DNA from: a virus
Lineage: Duplodnaviria; Heunggongvirae; Uroviricota; Caudoviricetes
Length of the DNA: 64,000 nucleotides
Strand: one strand, 5' to 3'
Virus record (IMG/VR): IMGVR_UViG_3300036829_000172
Span: 126,195 to 190,194 of that record
In this document: piece after piece, positions 4,015 through 38,857 of the stretch
Numbering within the stretch: position 1 is the stretch's first letter
Layout: each line of letters opens with the position of its first letter
Position numbers and translations under genes: made by a program
The notes under the pieces: model-generated
The model's database searches: none
Told to the model about the DNA's origin: nothing
Seen by the model: only the letters and a program-made list of their open reading frames with translations

Positions 4015-4380
4015 ATGGACAGCATGGAATCGGTGCATCGCACCGACCTGGCGCGCCTGGAAGCGTTGGACGACCTGCGGCTGCTGCTGCAGAAGGCGGA
4101 GCTGGCGACCCGCTGGGTCGTGCAGCTGCAGGGCCTGGGCGGTGCGGGTCGCGGCGAGCATTGCCTGCGCGACCCCGCGGATCGGGCCAACGCGCGGCGC
4201 AATGCGGAGGAGCTGGCGCGCGAAACCAGCAGCGTGGCACGCGAAGCAATCGACAACGTCGCCAGCGGCCACCCGCGCAAACTGACCGACCTGCTCGAAC
4301 GCGTGACGCACTACGAGCGCCGCGTTCGGGCGCTGTGCCAGATGGGCGGGCTGCATATGGGCAACGAGCGGCTCTGGTAG
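4015..4380 (+). CDS. hypothetical protein
   Basis: ORF after motif. Confidence 0.7.
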   Translation: MDSMESVHRTDLARLEALDDLRLLLQKAELATRWVVQLQGLGGAGRGEHCLRDPADRANARRNAEELARETSSVAREAIDNVASGHPRKLTDLLERVTHYERRVRALCQMGGLHMGNERLW

Positions 4381-4488
4381 AGCCATGCGCGGTACTGACA
4401 CCACGGAGGGGAGCACACCCGAGCGCTCGGGTGTGTTGCCTCCTGTCGTGTTTCAGACAGGAACACCCACGAGAAATTGGAGAGAACC

Positions 4489-6150: not shown

Positions 6151-6197
6151 CCTGGTGCTCAGAAATTGAACACCACACCCACGAGAGAGAGAACACC
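6151..6197 (+). promoter_or_regulatory. leader motif copy
   Basis: gctcagaaattgaacaccacacccacgagagagag. Confidence 0.55.
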
Positions 6198-6380
6198 ATG
6201 AACAACAACATCGCCGGGTTTCCGGCCACGTCACGCAGCGAGGAACTGATGATGGGGGCGCGCACCACGCGTCGTCGTCGTCGCAGTGCCTGGGGGCCGC
6301 CGCTGGGTGACATCCGGGTAGGACAACCCGTGTACAGGCCGTTGGTCACCACGGCCGAACCCGCAGACGAGACGAGGTAA
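6198..6380 (+). CDS. hypothetical protein
   Basis: ORF after motif. Confidence 0.5.
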   Translation: MNNNIAGFPATSRSEELMMGARTTRRRRRSAWGPPLGDIRVGQPVYRPLVTTAEPADETR

Positions 6381-8590: not shown

Positions 8591-8640
8591 CACCACGTTC
8601 AAAAAATGAACACCCACCACGAGAAAGAGAGAAACACCCC
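8591..8640 (+). promoter_or_regulatory. leader motif copy (cacgttcaaaaaatgaacacccaccacgagaaagagagaaac)
   Basis: seen. Confidence 0.6.
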
Positions 8641-8811
8641 ATGTCACGACCCGAAACCATGAACAGGCTGGAATTGATCACCCGGGAGCAGGCCGAGTCG
8701 TGGGCGGGTCGCGCGCTGTCCGACGATGAACTTGAACGACTCTCCGACGCCATCCCAAACTCCTCGATCCCCGACGCGGTCGACACGATCGTCTCCTCAT
8801 GGGAGGACTGA
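8641..8811 (+). CDS. 56-aa hypothetical acidic protein
   Basis: ATG right after motif; ATGA junction to next gene. Confidence 0.45.
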   Translation: MSRPETMNRLELITREQAESWAGRALSDDELERLSDAIPNSSIPDAVDTIVSSWED

Positions 8812-11997: not shown

Positions 11998-12123
11998 CTC
12001 TGTGGAGAGTGGGGTGCCGCGTGATGTTTTGGATTCAGTTTGTAGTTAATTACGCACTGCTTTTATCGGCCACTATCCTCACGCTTCTGACCTGACGCGG
12101 CCGGCCCCCCGGTTAGTGCCGCG

Positions 12124-12151
12124 TGACATAAGGACCGGGAACCGGTAGAAT
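12124..12151 (+). promoter_or_regulatory. SigA-type promoter copy 2 (TGACAT-N16-TAGAAT), preceded by an AT-rich stretch 12020-12060
   Basis: near-identical to copy 1; followed by cacgagagaaggagcacatcATG. Confidence 0.55.
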
Positions 12152-12200
12152 AGTAGTTAGAAGTTGAAAGAAAGATTCCCCACGAGAGAAGGAGCACATC

Positions 12201-12503
12201 ATGTCCGGTATGGGAGAGATCGGCGAAGTTGAATTCGACGATCTGGATATCCGTGCAGAGATCAACCAGGCGCAAAAGGTAGTGGTTTGGTACCCCGTCG
12301 ACCCGCTGGACGCCGAGAGTGCGGCGTGCCTGGACCTGACGTTCCTCTATGGCGAGCGCCCGCCGCTCGTCGAAGTCGTGTCCGACGGGGAGCACATCGT
12401 GGGGTTGACGATCTCACCGGCCCGTGCGCGCGAATGGGCGCGGATGCTCACCGAGGCCGCCGACGGAGCTGACGCCGAGTACCGGACCAGAACGGGCGCC
12501 TGA
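12201..12503 (+). CDS. hypothetical acidic protein
   Basis: ORF downstream of promoter copy 2. Confidence 0.7.
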   Translation: MSGMGEIGEVEFDDLDIRAEINQAQKVVVWYPVDPLDAESAACLDLTFLYGERPPLVEVVSDGEHIVGLTISPARAREWARMLTEAADGADAEYRTRTGA

Positions 12504-12554
12504 GCGCCTATTCATTTTTTGAACACCCCCCGACCACGAGAGAAGGAGCACATC
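12501..12554 (+). promoter_or_regulatory. leader motif copy
   Basis: gagcgcctattcattttttgaacaccccccgaccacgagagaagg. Confidence 0.6.
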
Positions 12555-12680: not shown

Positions 12681-12749
12681 ACCCGAGCGCCTATTCATTT
12701 TTTGAACATTCATTTTTTGAACACCCCCGACCACGAGAGAGAGACACGC
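12681..12749 (+). promoter_or_regulatory. leader motif copy with duplicated IR half
   Basis: gagcgcctattcattttttgaacattcattttttgaacacccccgaccacgagagagag. Confidence 0.6.
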
Positions 12750-13352
12750 ATGACCGAAATGACCGCCCTCGACGCCGTATGCCAGCTCGCAAACGTGAGC
12801 GGCCTCATCCAGATCCACGACAGCGGCCCCGTCGACGTCGGCAGGGTCGTCGTATTCGGTGACCAGGCCCAGGCCCGTGAGTACCTGCTTGGAGCCCGAC
12901 TTGGGGCGGGCAGTAAGGACGTGGGCGTCCTCGTTGAGGTGACGTTCAACCGGCTCGGTGAGGTCGCCAAGGTGCGTGCCCGCGTCGACGGCGAGCCGCG
13001 CGATATCAGCGGTGATCGCGGTAACGGTGGCGAGCGGCTGCTGTGGACGCTGGAGCTGTTCTATGAGCTCGGCGCGCGTACGCCGTCGATGCCGCGCGAG
13101 GAGTCCGACGAGGACCGCGAGCGCCAGATCGCCGACCGGACACCACCACCGGTCATGAACACGACACACAAGCTAATCGGTGCCACCATCCGCGCCACCA
13201 ACCGTACCTATGGGCTCGCGCCAGCACGCGACTACGGCCCAGACGAGACGGTTGTCAAGGTCAACGCTTACGACGCGACCGTTTACACAGCCGAGGGAAA
13301 CTGCTACCTGCTAGGCGGATACGTCGTTATGCGCCACGCGGATAAGTCATGA
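12750..13352 (+). CDS. hypothetical protein
   Basis: ORF trimmed to ATG after motif. Confidence 0.7.
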   Translation: MTEMTALDAVCQLANVSGLIQIHDSGPVDVGRVVVFGDQAQAREYLLGARLGAGSKDVGVLVEVTFNRLGEVAKVRARVDGEPRDISGDRGNGGERLLWTLELFYELGARTPSMPREESDEDRERQIADRTPPPVMNTTHKLIGATIRATNRTYGLAPARDYGPDETVVKVNAYDATVYTAEGNCYLLGGYVVMRHADKS

Positions 13353-14352: not shown

Positions 14353-14398
14353 CACGTTCAAAAAATGAACACCCACACGAGAGATGGAGAGAACCACA
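14343..14398 (+). promoter_or_regulatory. leader motif copy; 43 bp identical to the copy at 15018
   Basis: cacccggatagcacgttcaaaaaatgaacacccacacgagaga. Confidence 0.65.
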
Positions 14399-19275: not shown

Positions 19276-20982
19276 ATGACAACCGCAACACCCAACGAGC
19301 AGATCCTGGGCACACTCGAGCATCTGCACCCCGACACCGTCCAGCTCGACGACAACGTCCGCACCGACGCGGGCATGACCAAACCGTTCATCGCGAGCAT
19401 CGCCGAACACGGGGTGCTGGTACCGCTCACCGCGATCCGCACCCCCGACGGTACGGTCCACGTCCGTACCGGGCAGCGCCGCACCTTGGCAGCCCGCAAG
19501 GCGGGCTTGACCACCATCCCGGTGTTCATCCGTGACGTCGATTACCACCCCGGCGACCCAAGCGACGAGCAGCAGGCGGCGCGGCTGGTTGAGCAGATCG
19601 TGGAGAACGATCGCCGGCTCGACCTGACCCCCACCCAGCGGGTGTTCGGCATTCAGCAGCTACTCGACACCGGCATGTCGATCACGAAGGCCGCGAAGAA
19701 GCTGTCAGTGTCAGCGCCGACCGTCAAGGCGGCGAAGGCGGTTGCCGGGTCGCAGGCCGCGCTGGATGCTTTAACGTCCGGTGAGCATCAGCTGTCGCTG
19801 CTGGAGGCGGCGGTGATCGCCGAGTTCGAGGACGATCCCCGCGCGGTGGAGCGGCTGCTGCACCCGCGCTGGCAGTCGTTCGAGCATGTCGCGGCGCAGC
19901 TGCGTGAGGAACGCGCCAGCGCGCAAGCGCAGGCCGACGCCGAGCAACGCTACCGGGACGAGGGATACACCGTTCTGACTGAGACGCCGGCGTCGTTCGA
20001 CCCGTTCTGCGTACCGCTGCATTCGCTGCAGGCCCCCGACGGTGAGGAGGCGGACACGGCGGCGGTGACCGTGCCAGCGCAGTGGGCGGTGCTAGTCGTC
20101 GAGGACCAGGTGCTCACCGACAAGGAAACCGGGGAGCCCGTCGACGAGGACGACGTCGACTGGAACACCGAGGGCCGTCCCGACGCCACCCCGGGTGAGG
20201 GGCTGCGGCACGCCGACACGGTGCTTGAGACGACCGGGTTCGGAGCGGAGTACTTCTGCCTCGACTACCAGGCGGCAGGGTTGACACCCACCGAGCGGTT
20301 CATGCGGCTGGGCGGTGGGAACCGGTTCACCACCGAGACCGAGTCCGACGAGGCGAACGGCGGTGCGCCGGCCACTCCTGACGAGTTGGCGGAAAGGCGT
20401 GCGGCGGCAGCCGCGCAGGCGGCCAGCGAGAAGCAGGAGGCCGAGAAGCGGGAGCGGCGCAAGGTGCTGGCGCTCAACAAGCTCGGCGCGGCCGCGCTGC
20501 GGGTCCGTCGAGAGTTCATCAAGACGCTGCTCTCGCGTAAAACCGCGCCGAAGGGGGCGGCGATATTCGTCGCCCGAGCGTTGGCGGGTGACGGGTATCT
20601 GCTGACGACCAACAATGCAGGCAACGTCGCTGCGGAGCTGCTGGGCCTCAAGGATTCCGGGAAGAAGGAGGCGAAACCGAGCTACGAGTATGAGCCGCCG
20701 ACCGACGCGGTGATCAACGCGGCGCGCGGGCTGCCGGACACCGGTGATCAGCGGGCACAGATCCTGTTGTTGGGGTTGGTGTTGGGCGCGTTGGAGGCCC
20801 GCACACCCAAGGACGCGTGGCGCGGCGGCGGCCACAGCCACATGTCGCGGGCGGTCGGCGGTAAGGAGTATCTGCAGTTCCTCGCCGACAACGGCTATCA
20901 GCTGGCGCCGGTCGAGGAGGTCATCGCGGGGAAGAAGAAGGCCGACAAGGTGTACGACCAGCAGCAGGCCGAGGCGTCGTGA
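19276..20982 (+). CDS. parB: ParB/Spo0J-like partition protein (N-terminal ParB box GQRRTLAARKAGLTTIPV, HTH MSITKAAKKLSVSAPTV, long C-terminal extension)
   Basis: motif-level match to ParB N-terminal domain; no ParA seen. Confidence 0.75.
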   Translation: MTTATPNEQILGTLEHLHPDTVQLDDNVRTDAGMTKPFIASIAEHGVLVPLTAIRTPDGTVHVRTGQRRTLAARKAGLTTIPVFIRDVDYHPGDPSDEQQAARLVEQIVENDRRLDLTPTQRVFGIQQLLDTGMSITKAAKKLSVSAPTVKAAKAVAGSQAALDALTSGEHQLSLLEAAVIAEFEDDPRAVERLLHPRWQSFEHVAAQLREERASAQAQADAEQRYRDEGYTVLTETPASFDPFCVPLHSLQAPDGEEADTAAVTVPAQWAVLVVEDQVLTDKETGEPVDEDDVDWNTEGRPDATPGEGLRHADTVLETTGFGAEYFCLDYQAAGLTPTERFMRLGGGNRFTTETESDEANGGAPATPDELAERRAAAAAQAASEKQEAEKRERRKVLALNKLGAAALRVRREFIKTLLSRKTAPKGAAIFVARALAGDGYLLTTNNAGNVAAELLGLKDSGKKEAKPSYEYEPPTDAVINAARGLPDTGDQRAQILLLGLVLGALEARTPKDAWRGGGHSHMSRAVGGKEYLQFLADNGYQLAPVEEVIAGKKKADKVYDQQQAEAS

Positions 20983-21206
20983 TGGCGACGCTCGATCTGC
21001 ATGACGCGGTGACCGAACGCTGCCTGGGTACCACTCATACCCACCACGTGCCTCGGATCGGTGAAGCCGTCGATTGGCGCGGGGCGAAGTGGCGGGTGCT
21101 GGATGTCCAACACCCGACCGAAGACGACAAGGGTGTCGGGATCTACCCGCCCCGGGTGTTCGTGGTGGATCAAGACGCGCCGACAGGGGCCGCTGAACAG
21201 CAGTAA
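20979..21206 (+). CDS. hypothetical protein
   Basis: ORF. Confidence 0.5.
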   Translation: MMATLDLHDAVTERCLGTTHTHHVPRIGEAVDWRGAKWRVLDVQHPTEDDKGVGIYPPRVFVVDQDAPTGAAEQQ

Positions 21207-21223
21207 CGCTGTTTAAGGCCGCG

Positions 21224-21251
21224 TGACATAAGGAGTCGATAAGGGTAAAAT
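21224..21251 (+). promoter_or_regulatory. SigA-type promoter copy 3 (TGACAT-N16-TAAAAT)
   Basis: third copy of gcgtgacataagga...tagttg element. Confidence 0.5.
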
Positions 21252-21284
21252 TGTAGTTGAAAGGTTGAGAAACCATCAGATCAG

Positions 21285-21384
21285 CCCGTCATGCGTGCGA
21301 GAGAAAACCAGCTAGACACGCATGACGGGGGCATGAGACCACCCGCCGCGGTACCTCTCTCTTTCTCTCGGGGTCCGCGGCGGG
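21285..21384 (+). ncRNA. structured 5' leader or small RNA with two perfect hairpins. Hairpin 1: 13-bp stem at 21285-21297 and 21317-21329, loop cgagagaaaaccagctaga. Hairpin 2: 10-bp stem at 21342-21351 and 21375-21384, CU-rich loop uaccucucucuuucucucggggu that is antisense to the conserved CACGAGAAAGAGAGA leader.
   Basis: seen in sequence, between promoter copy 3 and HNH gene. Confidence 0.4.
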
Positions 21385-21414
21385 TCTGCCAATCGTGAAA
21401 GGAGGAAAGCAGGA

Positions 21415-21705
21415 ATGGGACGTAATCGCCGCACCGGACCTAGGCGTGGTAGCCACCCGTCGCTCAAGGTGAAGCTGTTTGAGCGCGACGGCTGGCAAGC
21501 AAAGGACGGCACATGGTTCGTCCGGTGTGCTTTCGGATGCGGCGCGGTCCTTACCCGAACCACGGCAACCATTGACCGCCACCCTGTTCCTGGCCGCCAC
21601 GGCGGAACCTATCGCTTAGACAACACCCGGCTGGCCTGTGCCCCCTGCAACACAGCGGATGGTGGCCAAGCAGCCATTGGAAGAAAGAAGAGGTCGACAA
21701 CATGA
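21415..21705 (+). CDS. HNH endonuclease (C..C...HP...GG.Y..DN..LAC..CN)
   Basis: canonical SD gaaaggaggaaagcaggaATG. Confidence 0.65.
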   Translation: MGRNRRTGPRRGSHPSLKVKLFERDGWQAKDGTWFVRCAFGCGAVLTRTTATIDRHPVPGRHGGTYRLDNTRLACAPCNTADGGQAAIGRKKRSTT

Positions 21706-22139
21706 GGAGCTGCGTCGTGTGCGGGCGGGAGTTCGCCTACGAACCCAAACCTGGGCGCCCGCCGGTGACGTGCTCACCGGAATGCCAACGTGAAAACAAG
21801 GCCCGTCGGGGCGCGACCCGGAAATGCCCGCCAGACAAGCACGGCACAGCCACCGGGTACAGCTGGTACAAGTGCAGCTGCGCCGAATGCAGGCACTGGG
21901 CACGCGACTACCAGCGGACCCGGCGCAGCGCCACACGTTCAGACACGACGAAGACGAGGCGCACAACCGGACGGTCAGAGGCCAAACGCAGCCGGAGCCG
22001 GCGACGCGACCGAGATGCGGCGATAGCCGGTCTAGTCGCGCGGGGCTGGTCGTATCGGCGGATCGCGGCGCGCCTCGGCTGCTCGGTGGGGTCAGTGCAC
22101 AACGCCATAAAACGGGCAGAAGCCGACCACACAAGATGA
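21702..22139 (+). CDS. DNA-binding protein: N-terminal Cys4 zinc-ribbon, C-terminal HTH (GWSYRRIAARLGCSVGSVHNAIKR)
   Basis: ORF. Confidence 0.65.
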   Translation: MRSCVVCGREFAYEPKPGRPPVTCSPECQRENKARRGATRKCPPDKHGTATGYSWYKCSCAECRHWARDYQRTRRSATRSDTTKTRRTTGRSEAKRSRSRRRDRDAAIAGLVARGWSYRRIAARLGCSVGSVHNAIKRAEADHTR

Positions 22140-22140
22140 A

Positions 22141-22203
22141 CATGCTCAGTTTTTGAACACCCCACGAGATGAAAAACCCCACGAGAAAAGGAGCACCACA
22201 AAG
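22141..22203 (+). promoter_or_regulatory. leader motif copy
   Basis: ctcagtttttgaacaccccacgagatgaaaaaccccacgagaaaagg. Confidence 0.55.
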
Positions 22204-22587
22204 ATGAGCACAGAACTCTGGGAGCGGTGGGTAGCTTCCACCACCGAACCTCAATACCGCATCAAACGCGGCGCGAAAATCCGCGTCGAGCAGACACAGC
22301 ACACCGTCGGCGGCGGCGTGCTGCCGGGTATGCCACCCGTCACGTACACCCGCGCACGAAAGTGGATCACGTTCCCCGACGTCATCGACGGCGTCAAGGT
22401 GATCATCGACATGCCCGAGAACGCCACCACCAAACCGTGCGATCAGCGCCGCCACCGCGACTGCCGGCACCGGCTGGGCGCTGCGCAGGAAGGCGGGGTC
22501 ATCCTCAAAGTGGGGCTGCCCGGGTTCCACTGGCGGTGCGGCTGCCCGTGTCACAACGATCCGGCGCAGGCCGGGATGCTGTTGTAG
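22204..22587 (+). CDS. hypothetical protein
   Basis: ORF trimmed. Confidence 0.6.
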   Translation: MSTELWERWVASTTEPQYRIKRGAKIRVEQTQHTVGGGVLPGMPPVTYTRARKWITFPDVIDGVKVIIDMPENATTKPCDQRRHRDCRHRLGAAQEGGVILKVGLPGFHWRCGCPCHNDPAQAGMLL

Positions 22588-22597
22588 GCCCGCGATC

Positions 22598-22912
22598 ATG
22601 AAAGTTCAACGACGGCTGCGTCTGATCGCAGTCGACGGAAAGATGATCGCGCCACCACCACCACCAGCGCCCCCGAAGATCACCAGCATCGGGCAGGCGC
22701 TGGCGGTGATGCGCCTGTCAGTAGCCATCATCACGTCCGAACCTGCCGACTTGTTCCGCGGCTACAGCAGCGACGAAACGGCCGAGCAGTACGCGGCTGT
22801 CGATCGGATGGTGGAAGCCTTCCGCGTCCTGGACCGGCTGCTCACCAGGCGTTCGAAAAATGAACACCCCCACCCCACGAGAAAACCCACGAGAGAAGAG
22901 AGAACGAAATGA
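22598..22912 (+). CDS. hypothetical protein with PPPPPAPP segment; 3' end reads through the next leader motif
   Basis: ORF. Confidence 0.5.
   Translation: MKVQRRLRLIAVDGKMIAPPPPPAPPKITSIGQALAVMRLSVAIITSEPADLFRGYSSDETAEQYAAVDRMVEAFRVLDRLLTRRSKNEHPHPTRKPTREERTK
22851..22908 (+). promoter_or_regulatory. leader motif copy (ggcgttcgaaaaatgaacacccccaccccacgagaaaacccacgagagaagagag)
   Basis: seen. Confidence 0.6.
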
Positions 22913-37819: not shown

Positions 37820-38857
37820 GTGACATACCAGACCGCTCTTGCGCCGCACGGACGTCCGCTGCGGCTGGGTAAGCAACCGGCCACCCGCACCAAGAAGCTG
37901 ATCCCGTTCACCCGGTTCCTCGACGTCAGTGTCCTGCCGCCGCTGCCCGCAGGTGACTTCGGCCACGACTCCCTGGTCCGCGGCAACTGGGGCATGCTGG
38001 GCAACGCCGATTACGGTGACTGCGTGTGGGCCGGAGCTGACCATGAACACATGCTGTGGCTGGCCGAAAGCGGCTCCCTGTCCGATCCGACCACCCTGTT
38101 CTCCGACGACACCGCGCTCGCCGACTATGCGCAGCAGACCGGGTTCAACCGCAACGACCCGAACACTGATCAGGGCACCGACATGGAAGCCGCCGCGTCC
38201 TACCGGCGCAAAACCGGCATCATCGACGTCAACAACACCCGTCACCTGATTGGCGCCTACGTCGACGTAGACCCCGGCAACATTCAAGAGCTGTGGTATG
38301 CGATGTGGCTGTTCGACGGCGTCGGAATCGGTGTCGAATTCCCGAGCGCCTGGATGGACGCGTTCAACCAGGGCCCCAACGGTCTGTGGGACAAAGTGAC
38401 CCGCCCCAACATCGAGGGTGGGCACTACATCGCCGGTGTCGCGCGCACCGGCGGCCGCGCTAACATCATCACCTGGGGCGACGATCACCCGCGGTTGACG
38501 GTGGCGGGCTATCAGCAGTTCAACGACCAGACGATGGCCTACGCCAGCCAGGAAAAGCTGCACTCCGGTGTGGACACCAACGGCTACGACTGGCCCGGCC
38601 TGCTGGCGCTGATCCAGGACCTCACCGGCGGCAACGTGCCGGTGCCGCCGAAGCCCACCCCGACCCCGACCCCGACGCCCACCCCCACACCGGCCCCGAC
38701 TCCGACACCCACCCCGACACCCACACCGGTGACGGACTTCCCGGTGGCGCCGGTCGGTGCGTGGCTGGACCGCAAACACAACTACACCCGCCGCGAAGAG
38801 AACGCGGCTAGCGCCATCTCGACGTGGGCCGGCGCCAACGGAATCGTGTTCCCCTGA
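37820..38857 (+). CDS. putative papain-like cysteine peptidase (GDCVWAG ... GGHYIAG) with (PT)n linker and small C-terminal domain
   Basis: SD aggagg + GTG; Cys/His dyad pattern only, weak. Confidence 0.5.
   Translation: MTYQTALAPHGRPLRLGKQPATRTKKLIPFTRFLDVSVLPPLPAGDFGHDSLVRGNWGMLGNADYGDCVWAGADHEHMLWLAESGSLSDPTTLFSDDTALADYAQQTGFNRNDPNTDQGTDMEAAASYRRKTGIIDVNNTRHLIGAYVDVDPGNIQELWYAMWLFDGVGIGVEFPSAWMDAFNQGPNGLWDKVTRPNIEGGHYIAGVARTGGRANIITWGDDHPRLTVAGYQQFNDQTMAYASQEKLHSGVDTNGYDWPGLLALIQDLTGGNVPVPPKPTPTPTPTPTPTPAPTPTPTPTPTPVTDFPVAPVGAWLDRKHNYTRREENAASAISTWAGANGIVFP

Follow-up and report, generated by a model that had tools for sequence, protein, structure and literature searches.

We identified a promoter-linked RNA hairpin element in a 64-kb stretch of a Caudoviricetes genome (IMG/VR record IMGVR_UViG_3300036829_000172; GC content 64%), hereafter called the window. 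Comparison with related genomes shows that positions 21224-21401 of the window hold a conserved promoter and the predicted structured 5' leader RNA of a gene for a cysteine-rich (Cys-rich) protein of Corndog-like (Cluster O-related) mycobacteriophages. Judging from the same comparison, an HNH endonuclease gene that now separates the leader from the Cys-rich gene is a recent insertion. The core of the leader is a leader-embedded regulatory RNA hairpin that is well supported as a structure and is tied, through its CU-repeat loop, to an unexplained leader motif found genome-wide. We consider it possible, with a probability of roughly 40%, that this loop functions as an antisense element, base-pairing with translation-initiation regions that contain GA repeats. 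All positions refer to the window; relatives are coded L001-L087 and their proteins carry P-numbers.

The leader has a folding energy of -68.1 kcal/mol (z = -3.4 against shuffles), and its predicted fold consists of two hairpins (Table 1). Hairpin 1 has the perfect 13-bp stem that an earlier note on this DNA had described, but its loop comprises 19 nucleotides (nt), CGAGAGAAAACCAGCUAGA, of which that note had quoted only the first 12; the loop displays the leader-like CGAGAGAAAAC. For hairpin 2, the perfect stem and the loop were as the note had given them, and the stem is of 11 rather than 10 base pairs (bp). The loop is a 23-nt CU repeat with the invariant core UCUCUC(G). The two loops are also complementary to each other, as had been proposed: CGAGAGAAA in loop 1 pairs with UUUCUCUCG in loop 2 over 9 bp (-13.3 kcal/mol), which is equalled by about 4% of composition-preserving shuffles. 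The tract CCTCTCTCTTTCTCTC is the sole CT-only run of at least 14 nt on the plus strand of the window, where six GA-only runs reach that length; at 10 nt or more there are 6 CT-only and 40 GA-only runs. CGAGAGA occurs 20 times on the plus strand and twice on the minus strand (TCTCTCG, twice on the plus strand). A covariance model found no second copy of hairpin 2 in the window.

The 3' arm of hairpin 1 (21314-21326) has 13 identical nt, AGACACGCATGAC, in common with the leader and start codon (12741-12755) of the gene at 12753, and for this reason hairpin 1 has the appearance of an ordinary translation-initiation region that was copied and folded back on itself. Several other readings of the hairpins were rejected. 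A putative conserved upstream mini-ORF in hairpin 1 (ATGACGGGGGCATGA, 21322-21336) varies in frame among relatives. If loop 2 were to lead a minus-strand gene, a start codon would be expected at leader spacing, yet none is there, and the minus-strand open reading frame (ORF) concerned overlaps the HNH insertion and is unconserved. A purine-riboswitch-like three-way junction lacks both a closing helix and an Rfam match, and the stems are too short for an RNase III site. Sequestration in cis of the downstream Shine-Dalgarno (SD) sequence, GAAAGG, which the earlier note had also considered, did not hold up: pairing with loop 2 reaches at most 5 bp, is lost in L009, L056 and Corndog, and is unconserved among relatives.

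Table 1. Features of the leader region in the window, examples of the repeated upstream unit, and loop 2 sequences by lineage.
Feature	Position	Strand	Sequence or detail
SigA-type promoter	21224-21251	+	-35 TGACAT 21224-21229, 16-nt spacer, -10 TAAAAT 21246-21251
Conserved initial transcribed region	21252-21284	+	TGTAGTTGAAAGGTTGAGAAACC...; common to the other two promoter copies, L010 and Corndog
Hairpin 1	21285-21329	+	arms 21285-21297 and 21317-21329, 13 bp perfect; loop 21298-21316
Hairpin 2	21341-21385	+	arms 21341-21351 and 21375-21385, 11 bp perfect; loop 21352-21374
SD region	21397-21409	+	GAAAGGAGGAAAG; in current use by the HNH gene
Inserted HNH endonuclease cassette	21402-21701	+	300 nt; ORF 21415-21705; Pfam HNH
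Cys-rich gene (phrog_13372, Corndog gp89 family) with C-terminal helix-turn-helix	21702-22139	+	ancestral gene after the hairpin leader
Repeated upstream unit, examples	2344-2389, 6157-6202, 8598-8643, 12498-12543, 14355-14384, 22851-22912	+	
Loop 2, window			UACCUCUCUCUUUCUCUCGGGGU
Loop 2, L008, L006, L047			GUACCUCUCUUUCUCUCGGG
Loop 2, L009			GUACCUCUCUCUCGGG
Loop 2, L056			GUACCAAUCUCUCGGG
Loop 2, L074			ACUCUCUCUGAUUCUCUCUCUCG
Loop 2, L057			UCUCUCUCGCACUCUCUCUC
Loop 2, Cluster O			UACCUCUCUCUC

Close relatives, found through ParB and through the downstream 145-amino-acid (aa) protein, provide six versions of the leader, namely those of the window (identical to L007), L008, L047-L055, L009, L006 and L056. 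Among them, nucleotide identity is 88-96% in the leader, 78-88% at the 3' end of the ParB gene and 66-73% in the Cys-rich gene. The covariance model built from these six variants detects two further loci, L074 (E = 4e-7) and L057 (E = 7e-5). The order in L074/L075 is ParB, a 120-aa gene, promoter, both hairpins and the Cys-rich gene; the L074 Cys-rich protein (P0146) is 57% identical to that of the window (A2 alignment), and both stems differ in sequence from the window stems. L057, with a Cys-rich protein of 52% identity, has the promoter and hairpin 2 only. Corndog, Suarez, Firecracker, Catdawg, Ryadel and Bora carry the promoter and one hairpin ahead of the gp89 family gene. In the Corndog gap between gp90 (ParB) and gp89, TTGACA-N17-TAAAAT is followed by the same initial transcribed sequence, one hairpin (GCUCGCCGGGACG / UACCUCUCUCUC / CGUCCCGGCGAGC), the Cluster O palindrome, an SD and ATG. 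Only the window lineage and L074 carry hairpin 1, which L057 and Cluster O lack; by its distribution, hairpin 2 is the universal core and the probable working part of the element.

Compensatory change supports both stems. Because MAFFT misaligned the diverged stems, arm-register alignments and the covariance model were used in its place. In the hairpin 2 alignment, 97.8% of cells are paired and both sides have changed in 7 of the 13 pairs; the covariation score is 0.535 against 0.238 in shuffles, none of which (0/500) scored as high, and slid controls gave 38-50% paired cells with zero double changes. Across 150 nt, variation within Cluster O is restricted to the two bases of one stem pair, which is A-U in Corndog, G.U in Suarez and Firecracker, and G-C in Catdawg, Ryadel and Bora. 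Hairpin 1 shows four compensatory pair changes between the window lineage and L074, and absorbs indels by register shift among the close variants. Since these G.U pairs can form only in RNA of the gene-sense strand, the RNA would be the sense transcript. These comparisons show the element to be a conserved, sense-strand leader RNA with a predicted structure and a loop sequence under selection.

The same evidence bears on the idea that the sequence works as DNA, through inverted repeats forming an operator or replication signal beside the adjoining ParB-like gene, or as protein, through a coding N-terminal extension of the Cys-rich protein. The latter has the merit that in Cluster O and L008 an ORF runs uninterrupted through the hairpin and has been used by gene callers or annotators. 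We regard both as very improbable. The stem changes are compensatory and the G.U intermediates strand-specific, loop lengths vary by 12-24 nt in a manner incompatible with fixed-phase half-sites, and the frame is interrupted in the window, L009, L006 and L056 (a G run of 5 or 6 bases, then stops). The annotated TTG, moreover, lies just 7 nt after the -10 element. It is from this TTG that Catdawg gp89 (L086 302-676) and Ryadel gp93 (L087 302-676) are annotated, and from a downstream ATG that the Corndog gene is; the extended start in Catdawg and Ryadel is probably an annotation artefact.

The loops are constrained in a different manner from the stems. The loop 2 core UCUCUC is invariant across lineages while the stems diverge fully, and UACCUCUCUC... 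is shared by loop 2 of the window lineage and Corndog. Where hairpin 1 is present, its loop keeps GAGAGA and its complementarity to loop 2 though the stems differ: pairing spans 7-9 bp in the window lineage (about 1-9% of shuffles as good) and 6+7 bp in L074, in different flanking sequence (at most 1/1000 shuffles as good). A passive 5' stabiliser or processing signal, acting against RNase E/J and carrying a CU loop that is an incidental, slippage-prone CT microsatellite, would account for the very stable stems and for the variable length of the CT tract, and 5' stabiliser hairpins are common. Such a role is nevertheless quite improbable here. The hairpin stands off the 5' end, with about 25-80 nt ahead of it, its loop core is invariant where the stems have fully diverged, composition does not account for the complementarity of the loop to hairpin 1 and the leaders, and stems of 11-15 bp are short for RNase III.

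The leaders in question belong to a repeated upstream unit carried by about 25-35 plus-strand genes between window positions 230 and 30100. The unit consists of a 17-bp palindrome (TGTTCA-N5-TGAACA), CCCC, ACGAGAGA with a GA-rich tract, and ATG, and GA leaders occur downstream of the hairpins (22161, 22874, 24222 and 26475) as well as elsewhere. The palindrome is loosely parS-like, and a ParB-like gene is present in the window. Cluster O genomes have a repeat, TGTTCGGNNNCCGAACA, and SigA-like promoters that parallel the repeated unit of the window (PMC4351075); the Corndog repeat continues likewise as CCCCACGA(A/G)AGA, and Corndog genes with GA leaders include gp82, gp95, gp96 and gp116.

The complementarity of loop 2 to the conserved leader, another claim of the earlier note, is confirmed by its reverse complement, ACCCCGAGAGAAAGAGAGAGGUA, which has GAGAAAGAGAGA in common with leaders, for example that at 8616. 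Against 35 window leaders of the CCCACGAGAGA type, loop 2 pairs at a mean of -20.6 kcal/mol, compared with -13.0 +/- 1.5 for shuffles, none of which (0/200) was as good. Together with the single long CT run, this excludes the CU/GA composition artefact that had been raised as a possible refutation. Roughly half of the 36 best sites in a genome-wide duplex scan of the window are leaders immediately 5' of start codons. Pairing between loop 2 and the leaders of L006 is equalled by 6/200 shuffles. In Corndog, 11 of 46 annotated translation-initiation regions pair at -12 kcal/mol or better, where shuffles average 3.7 and controls gave 2 of 50 windows, and the mean pairing is equalled by 13/300 shuffles. 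These results support the conclusion that the complementarity of loop 2 to leaders exceeds composition and recurs in relatives including Corndog. The riboregulator that the note had envisaged stands as an RNA-level element, given the covariation and a leader more conserved than its flanking genes, and it stands in its complementarity to the shared leaders; the global translational control attributed to it is something we infer.

If antisense pairing operates, the stable GC-rich stem of hairpin 2 would present the CU repeat as a single strand, and this would pair with the GA-repeat, SD-like segment in the 'CCCACGAGAGA...' leaders of about 20-35 early genes, located on other transcripts or further along the same operon mRNA. 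Ribosome binding would then be occluded or mRNA fate altered. In the window lineage and L074, the loop of hairpin 1 would display GAGAGA, a mimic of the target, and kiss loop 2 intramolecularly, providing a built-in competitor that tunes the amount of free loop 2. As a lead, the loop sequence ACCUCUCUUUCU resembles the 3' tail of mycobacterial 16S ribosomal RNA, ACCUCCUUUCU, which would make it a possible anti-SD mimic. A wider proposal, in which the anti-SD-mimic hairpin and the decoy hairpin constitute an RNA-based translational regulon and serve Corndog-like mycobacteriophages as an all-RNA timer of early-gene translation, is speculative, and we consider it rather doubtful.

Several points weigh against antisense pairing. 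After hairpin 2, a U-tract is absent in most lineages, the 3' flank being UCUGCCAAU in the window, CCCUGUUCGG in Corndog and UCACAUGC in L057, with UUUGU in L074 only; a free-standing RNA species of 100-150 nt, as the note had proposed, would therefore need processing, and the loop may act only as a part of the mRNA or need processing to act. One leader RNA facing about 30 targets raises a stoichiometry problem. Some match to GA-rich, SD-like leaders is to be expected of any CU loop. The complementary stretch that is invariant amounts to a short 6-7 nt of low-complexity sequence, and significance in the L006 and Corndog shuffle tests is only modest (about 0.03-0.04). The two visible leaders of L057, ACGAAAGA, fit the L057 loop poorly. 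Because the CU tract varies between 10 and 16 nt among close relatives, the exact loop register is unconstrained. About four independent lineages underlie the covariation itself, and the alignments behind the pair counts were set in structural register.

The earlier note had measured about 155 nt from the promoter to the HNH gene and had suggested, as an alternative, an attenuator for that gene. The distance is about right, some 157 nt from the predicted transcription start to the ATG at 21415. The attenuator reading fails because the HNH gene appears to have been inserted recently and because in all relatives the element precedes the Cys-rich gene. In every version but that of the window and L007, the leader lies directly upstream of the Cys-rich homolog, and the cassette is absent from L006, L008, L009, L047, L056, L074, L057 and Corndog. 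Aligned with L008, the insertion stands in place of 13 nt (TAAAGGTGAACAG). The inserted gene encodes HNH domain PF01844 (E = 2.5e-5; 24.8 bits against a cut-off of 21.4), and its GC content at third codon positions is 0.63, compared with 0.84-0.88 in neighbouring genes. It borrows the resident SD: GAAAGG, the first bases of GAAAGGAGGAAAG, is the ancestral SD of the Cys-rich gene, and the 3' end of the HNH gene provides a new SD for the displaced gene. A first hint that the HNH gene is not the partner of the element came from four HNH homologs (L001-L005), which lie in unrelated contexts with no similar leader element nearby.

The Cys-rich protein of the window has 145 aa, with the motifs CxxC...C..C and CPPDKHGTxTGYxxYKCxCxxCxxWAR, and its family, phrog_13372, with homologs in at least 61 clusters, has no assigned function. 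In the window lineage a C-terminal LuxR/sigma-70-region-4-like helix-turn-helix (HTH) domain is fused on, and a fold search with the protein gave a match for this domain only. The HTH is found in the window protein, L009 and P0125/P0126; the proteins of L006 (11903-12238), P0127 and P0140 stop in the Arg-rich linker ahead of it, and relatives of about 90 aa have neither linker nor HTH. This uneven distribution points to a lineage-specific domain fusion. The weaker IMG/VR protein matches L058-L064 are different genes. In unrelated IMG/VR phages (L058 1415-1465, L062 1420-1465 and L064 1420-1465), another conserved hairpin, GGCCCAGGCGGTGC...CACCGTGATCCTGGGCC, adjoins, just upstream, a gene sharing the HGTxxGY motif.

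That the hairpin is always linked to the Cys-rich gene is one reason to consider a protein-binding RNA operator, in which the CU loop on its stable stem would be bound by the Cys-rich protein, as autoregulation, or by host S1 or Rho. T4 RegA, gp32 and gp43 are precedents for autoregulation; ribosomal protein S1 and Rho are host factors that prefer pyrimidine-rich single strands, and Rho primary sites bind YC dinucleotides. An invariant loop on covarying stems is the classic signature of a sequence-specific loop-ligand interaction, the protein of the window lineage combines a basic, Arg-rich helix with an HTH domain, and the hairpin lies 15-60 nt upstream of the SD. An operator would, however, leave unexplained both the second hairpin, whose complementary loop has co-evolved in two lineages, and the match between the loop and the phage's own leaders, which is better than in shuffles. 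The 10-16 nt variation in the CU tract also sits poorly with it, the Cys-rich domain has no recognisable RNA-binding fold, and the linkage could merely reflect the conserved ParB-to-Ku gene order. Overall, we view a protein operator as a tenable but doubtful account.

The TGACAT-N16-TAAAAT promoter described in the earlier note is present. It may alternatively be read as GTGACA-N17-TAAAAT (GTGACA at 21223-21228), matches 10 of 12 consensus positions and has a predicted transcription start at about 21258. The promoter is kept in L006, L008, L009, L047, L056, L074, L057 and Corndog, and its family has exactly three copies in the window, at 2162, 12120 and 21220. After the copies at 2162 and 12120, a 'CCCACGAGAGAAGGAG' leader and a start codon come within about 45 nt and no hairpins were found, leaving hairpins at one copy of the three. 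Beyond the -35 and -10 elements, the copies (2162-2215, 12120-12173 and 21220-21273) share an initial transcribed sequence, GTAGTTGAAAGGTTGAGAAA, which also occurs in Corndog (L083 5032-5080) and in an otherwise unrelated 127-kb viral contig, L010 (IMG/VR 3300009826_000001, reverse strand, about 4300-4420). Its recurrence at the three copies, in L010 and in Corndog suggests that this promoter-proximal element has a separate function.

Hairpins located 25-85 nt downstream of a strong promoter and ahead of a long rightward operon could also act during transcription, as a leaky terminator or attenuator or as a put/nut-like antitermination signal. The two adjacent hairpins of the window lineage are like those of HK022 put in this respect. 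In L074, a hairpin followed by UUUGU is like the Corndog terminators proposed in PMC4351075. We nonetheless judge control of this kind unlikely. A GC-rich stem-loop of 11-15 bp, as in intrinsic (L-shaped) terminators, is in place, but the 3' U-tract is absent in the window, Corndog and L057, and such a tract is required at intrinsic terminators by mycobacterial RNA polymerase (Czyz et al. 2014, as cited in PMC4351075). A terminator scan of the window did not report the hairpin site. Two of the three promoter copies lack hairpins, Corndog and L057 carry one hairpin each, and boxA/boxB-like features are absent. Loop identity is usually irrelevant to terminators, yet the loop is the most conserved part here.

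Nucleotide searches gave no match between the region and isolate phages, near or distant, and no similarity between the window phage and Cluster O. The ParB-like protein is 43% identical to its Cluster O counterparts, such as that of Corndog, and the gene order AAA ATPase, ParB, X, Ku, DUF3560 and beta clamp is common to both. When IMG/VR was scanned with exact and gapped patterns of hairpin, palindrome-leader and promoter, nothing was found, and other scans returned only chance GC-rich palindromes without CU loops. A 19-mer scan of genome contigs gave nine matches in unrelated bacterial or metagenome-assembled genome records, uninspected and taken for chance; protein-anchored scans of metagenome and genome collections yielded nothing beyond one irrelevant locus (L046). 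Rfam 15, including 6C and C4, gave no relevant match at E<=10 in window 20500-22500, and Rfam gave none at E<=1 in Corndog L083, L074 or L057. The three stem-loops described in the Cluster O study (Cresawn et al. 2015, PMC4351075) are others; the study mentions neither the hairpin between gp90 and gp89 nor the CU loop, and a literature search for either found nothing.

Two features elsewhere in the window were noted. At its left end (68-211) lies a cluster of perfect or near-perfect palindromes with GGTACGCGCGTACC repeated and arms of up to 31 nt, possibly serving as an operator array or origin or marking a genome end. At 38646-38729, a plus-strand ORF contains a 12-nt periodic repeat, CCCCGACCCCGAC..., whose likely product is a Pro/Asp/Thr-rich linker of low complexity within a structural protein.

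Regulation at the RNA level has hardly been explored in mycobacteriophages, and the repeated leader and palindrome motifs of Cluster O have awaited a function since their description in 2015. Because the covariation is clear, the loop complements those leaders and culturable phages of M. smegmatis mc2 155 (Corndog, Catdawg and others) carry the hairpin, the matter is directly testable. Two local readings are also corrected, in that the HNH gene is an intruder and the N-terminally extended gp89 annotations probably cross a noncoding RNA.

Among known systems, Cluster O (PMC4351075) resembles the window in its SigA-like promoters within a long early operon, in a 17-bp palindromic repeat ahead of many genes, and in the gene order AAA ATPase, ParB, gp89, Ku and beta clamp. 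The window differs in its palindrome, TGTTCA-N5-TGAACA, and in the absence of nucleotide similarity. The inserted gene is like free-standing HNH homing endonuclease genes in sequence traits, namely its HNH motif, its atypical codon composition, an intergenic site that is empty in close relatives and its use of a resident SD; it differs in that its closest homologs lie in unrelated contexts.

Three groups of RNAs offer parallels to the leader itself. The HK022 put RNAs and the lambda nutL/N leader are hairpins near early promoters, with put sites following each early promoter. They share with the element one or two hairpins right after an early promoter and upstream of a small regulatory gene, whereas here hairpins follow one promoter copy of three, boxA/boxB are absent and the loop sequence is also conserved. 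The host-encoded 6C (Actinobacteria) and RsaE/RoxS are free-standing small RNAs with terminators and C-rich (CCCC) loops. Like the element, they set pyrimidine-rich loops against purine-rich SD sequences without Hfq, and 6C has two hairpins and works in mycobacteria; unlike them, the element is a 5' leader with a single CU-repeat loop, its other loop is the complement, and it has no Rfam match. The c4 antisense RNA of the P1/P7 immI operon (C4 is an Rfam family) and the P4 CI and N15 CB leader RNAs complete the set. They resemble the element as structured RNAs in a phage operon leader that are co-transcribed with their targets (here judged from promoter and gene order), and in exposed loops complementary to downstream ribosome-binding or leader sequences (here beyond chance by shuffles). 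The element differs in having no Rfam match and in its unrelated host and phage lineage; c4 targets one ribosome-binding site and CI causes termination, whereas here the complementary motif precedes about 20-35 genes. By analogy, the logic of the element appears closest to that of the P1 c4 and P4 CI leader RNAs and of pyrimidine-loop small RNAs such as actinobacterial 6C.

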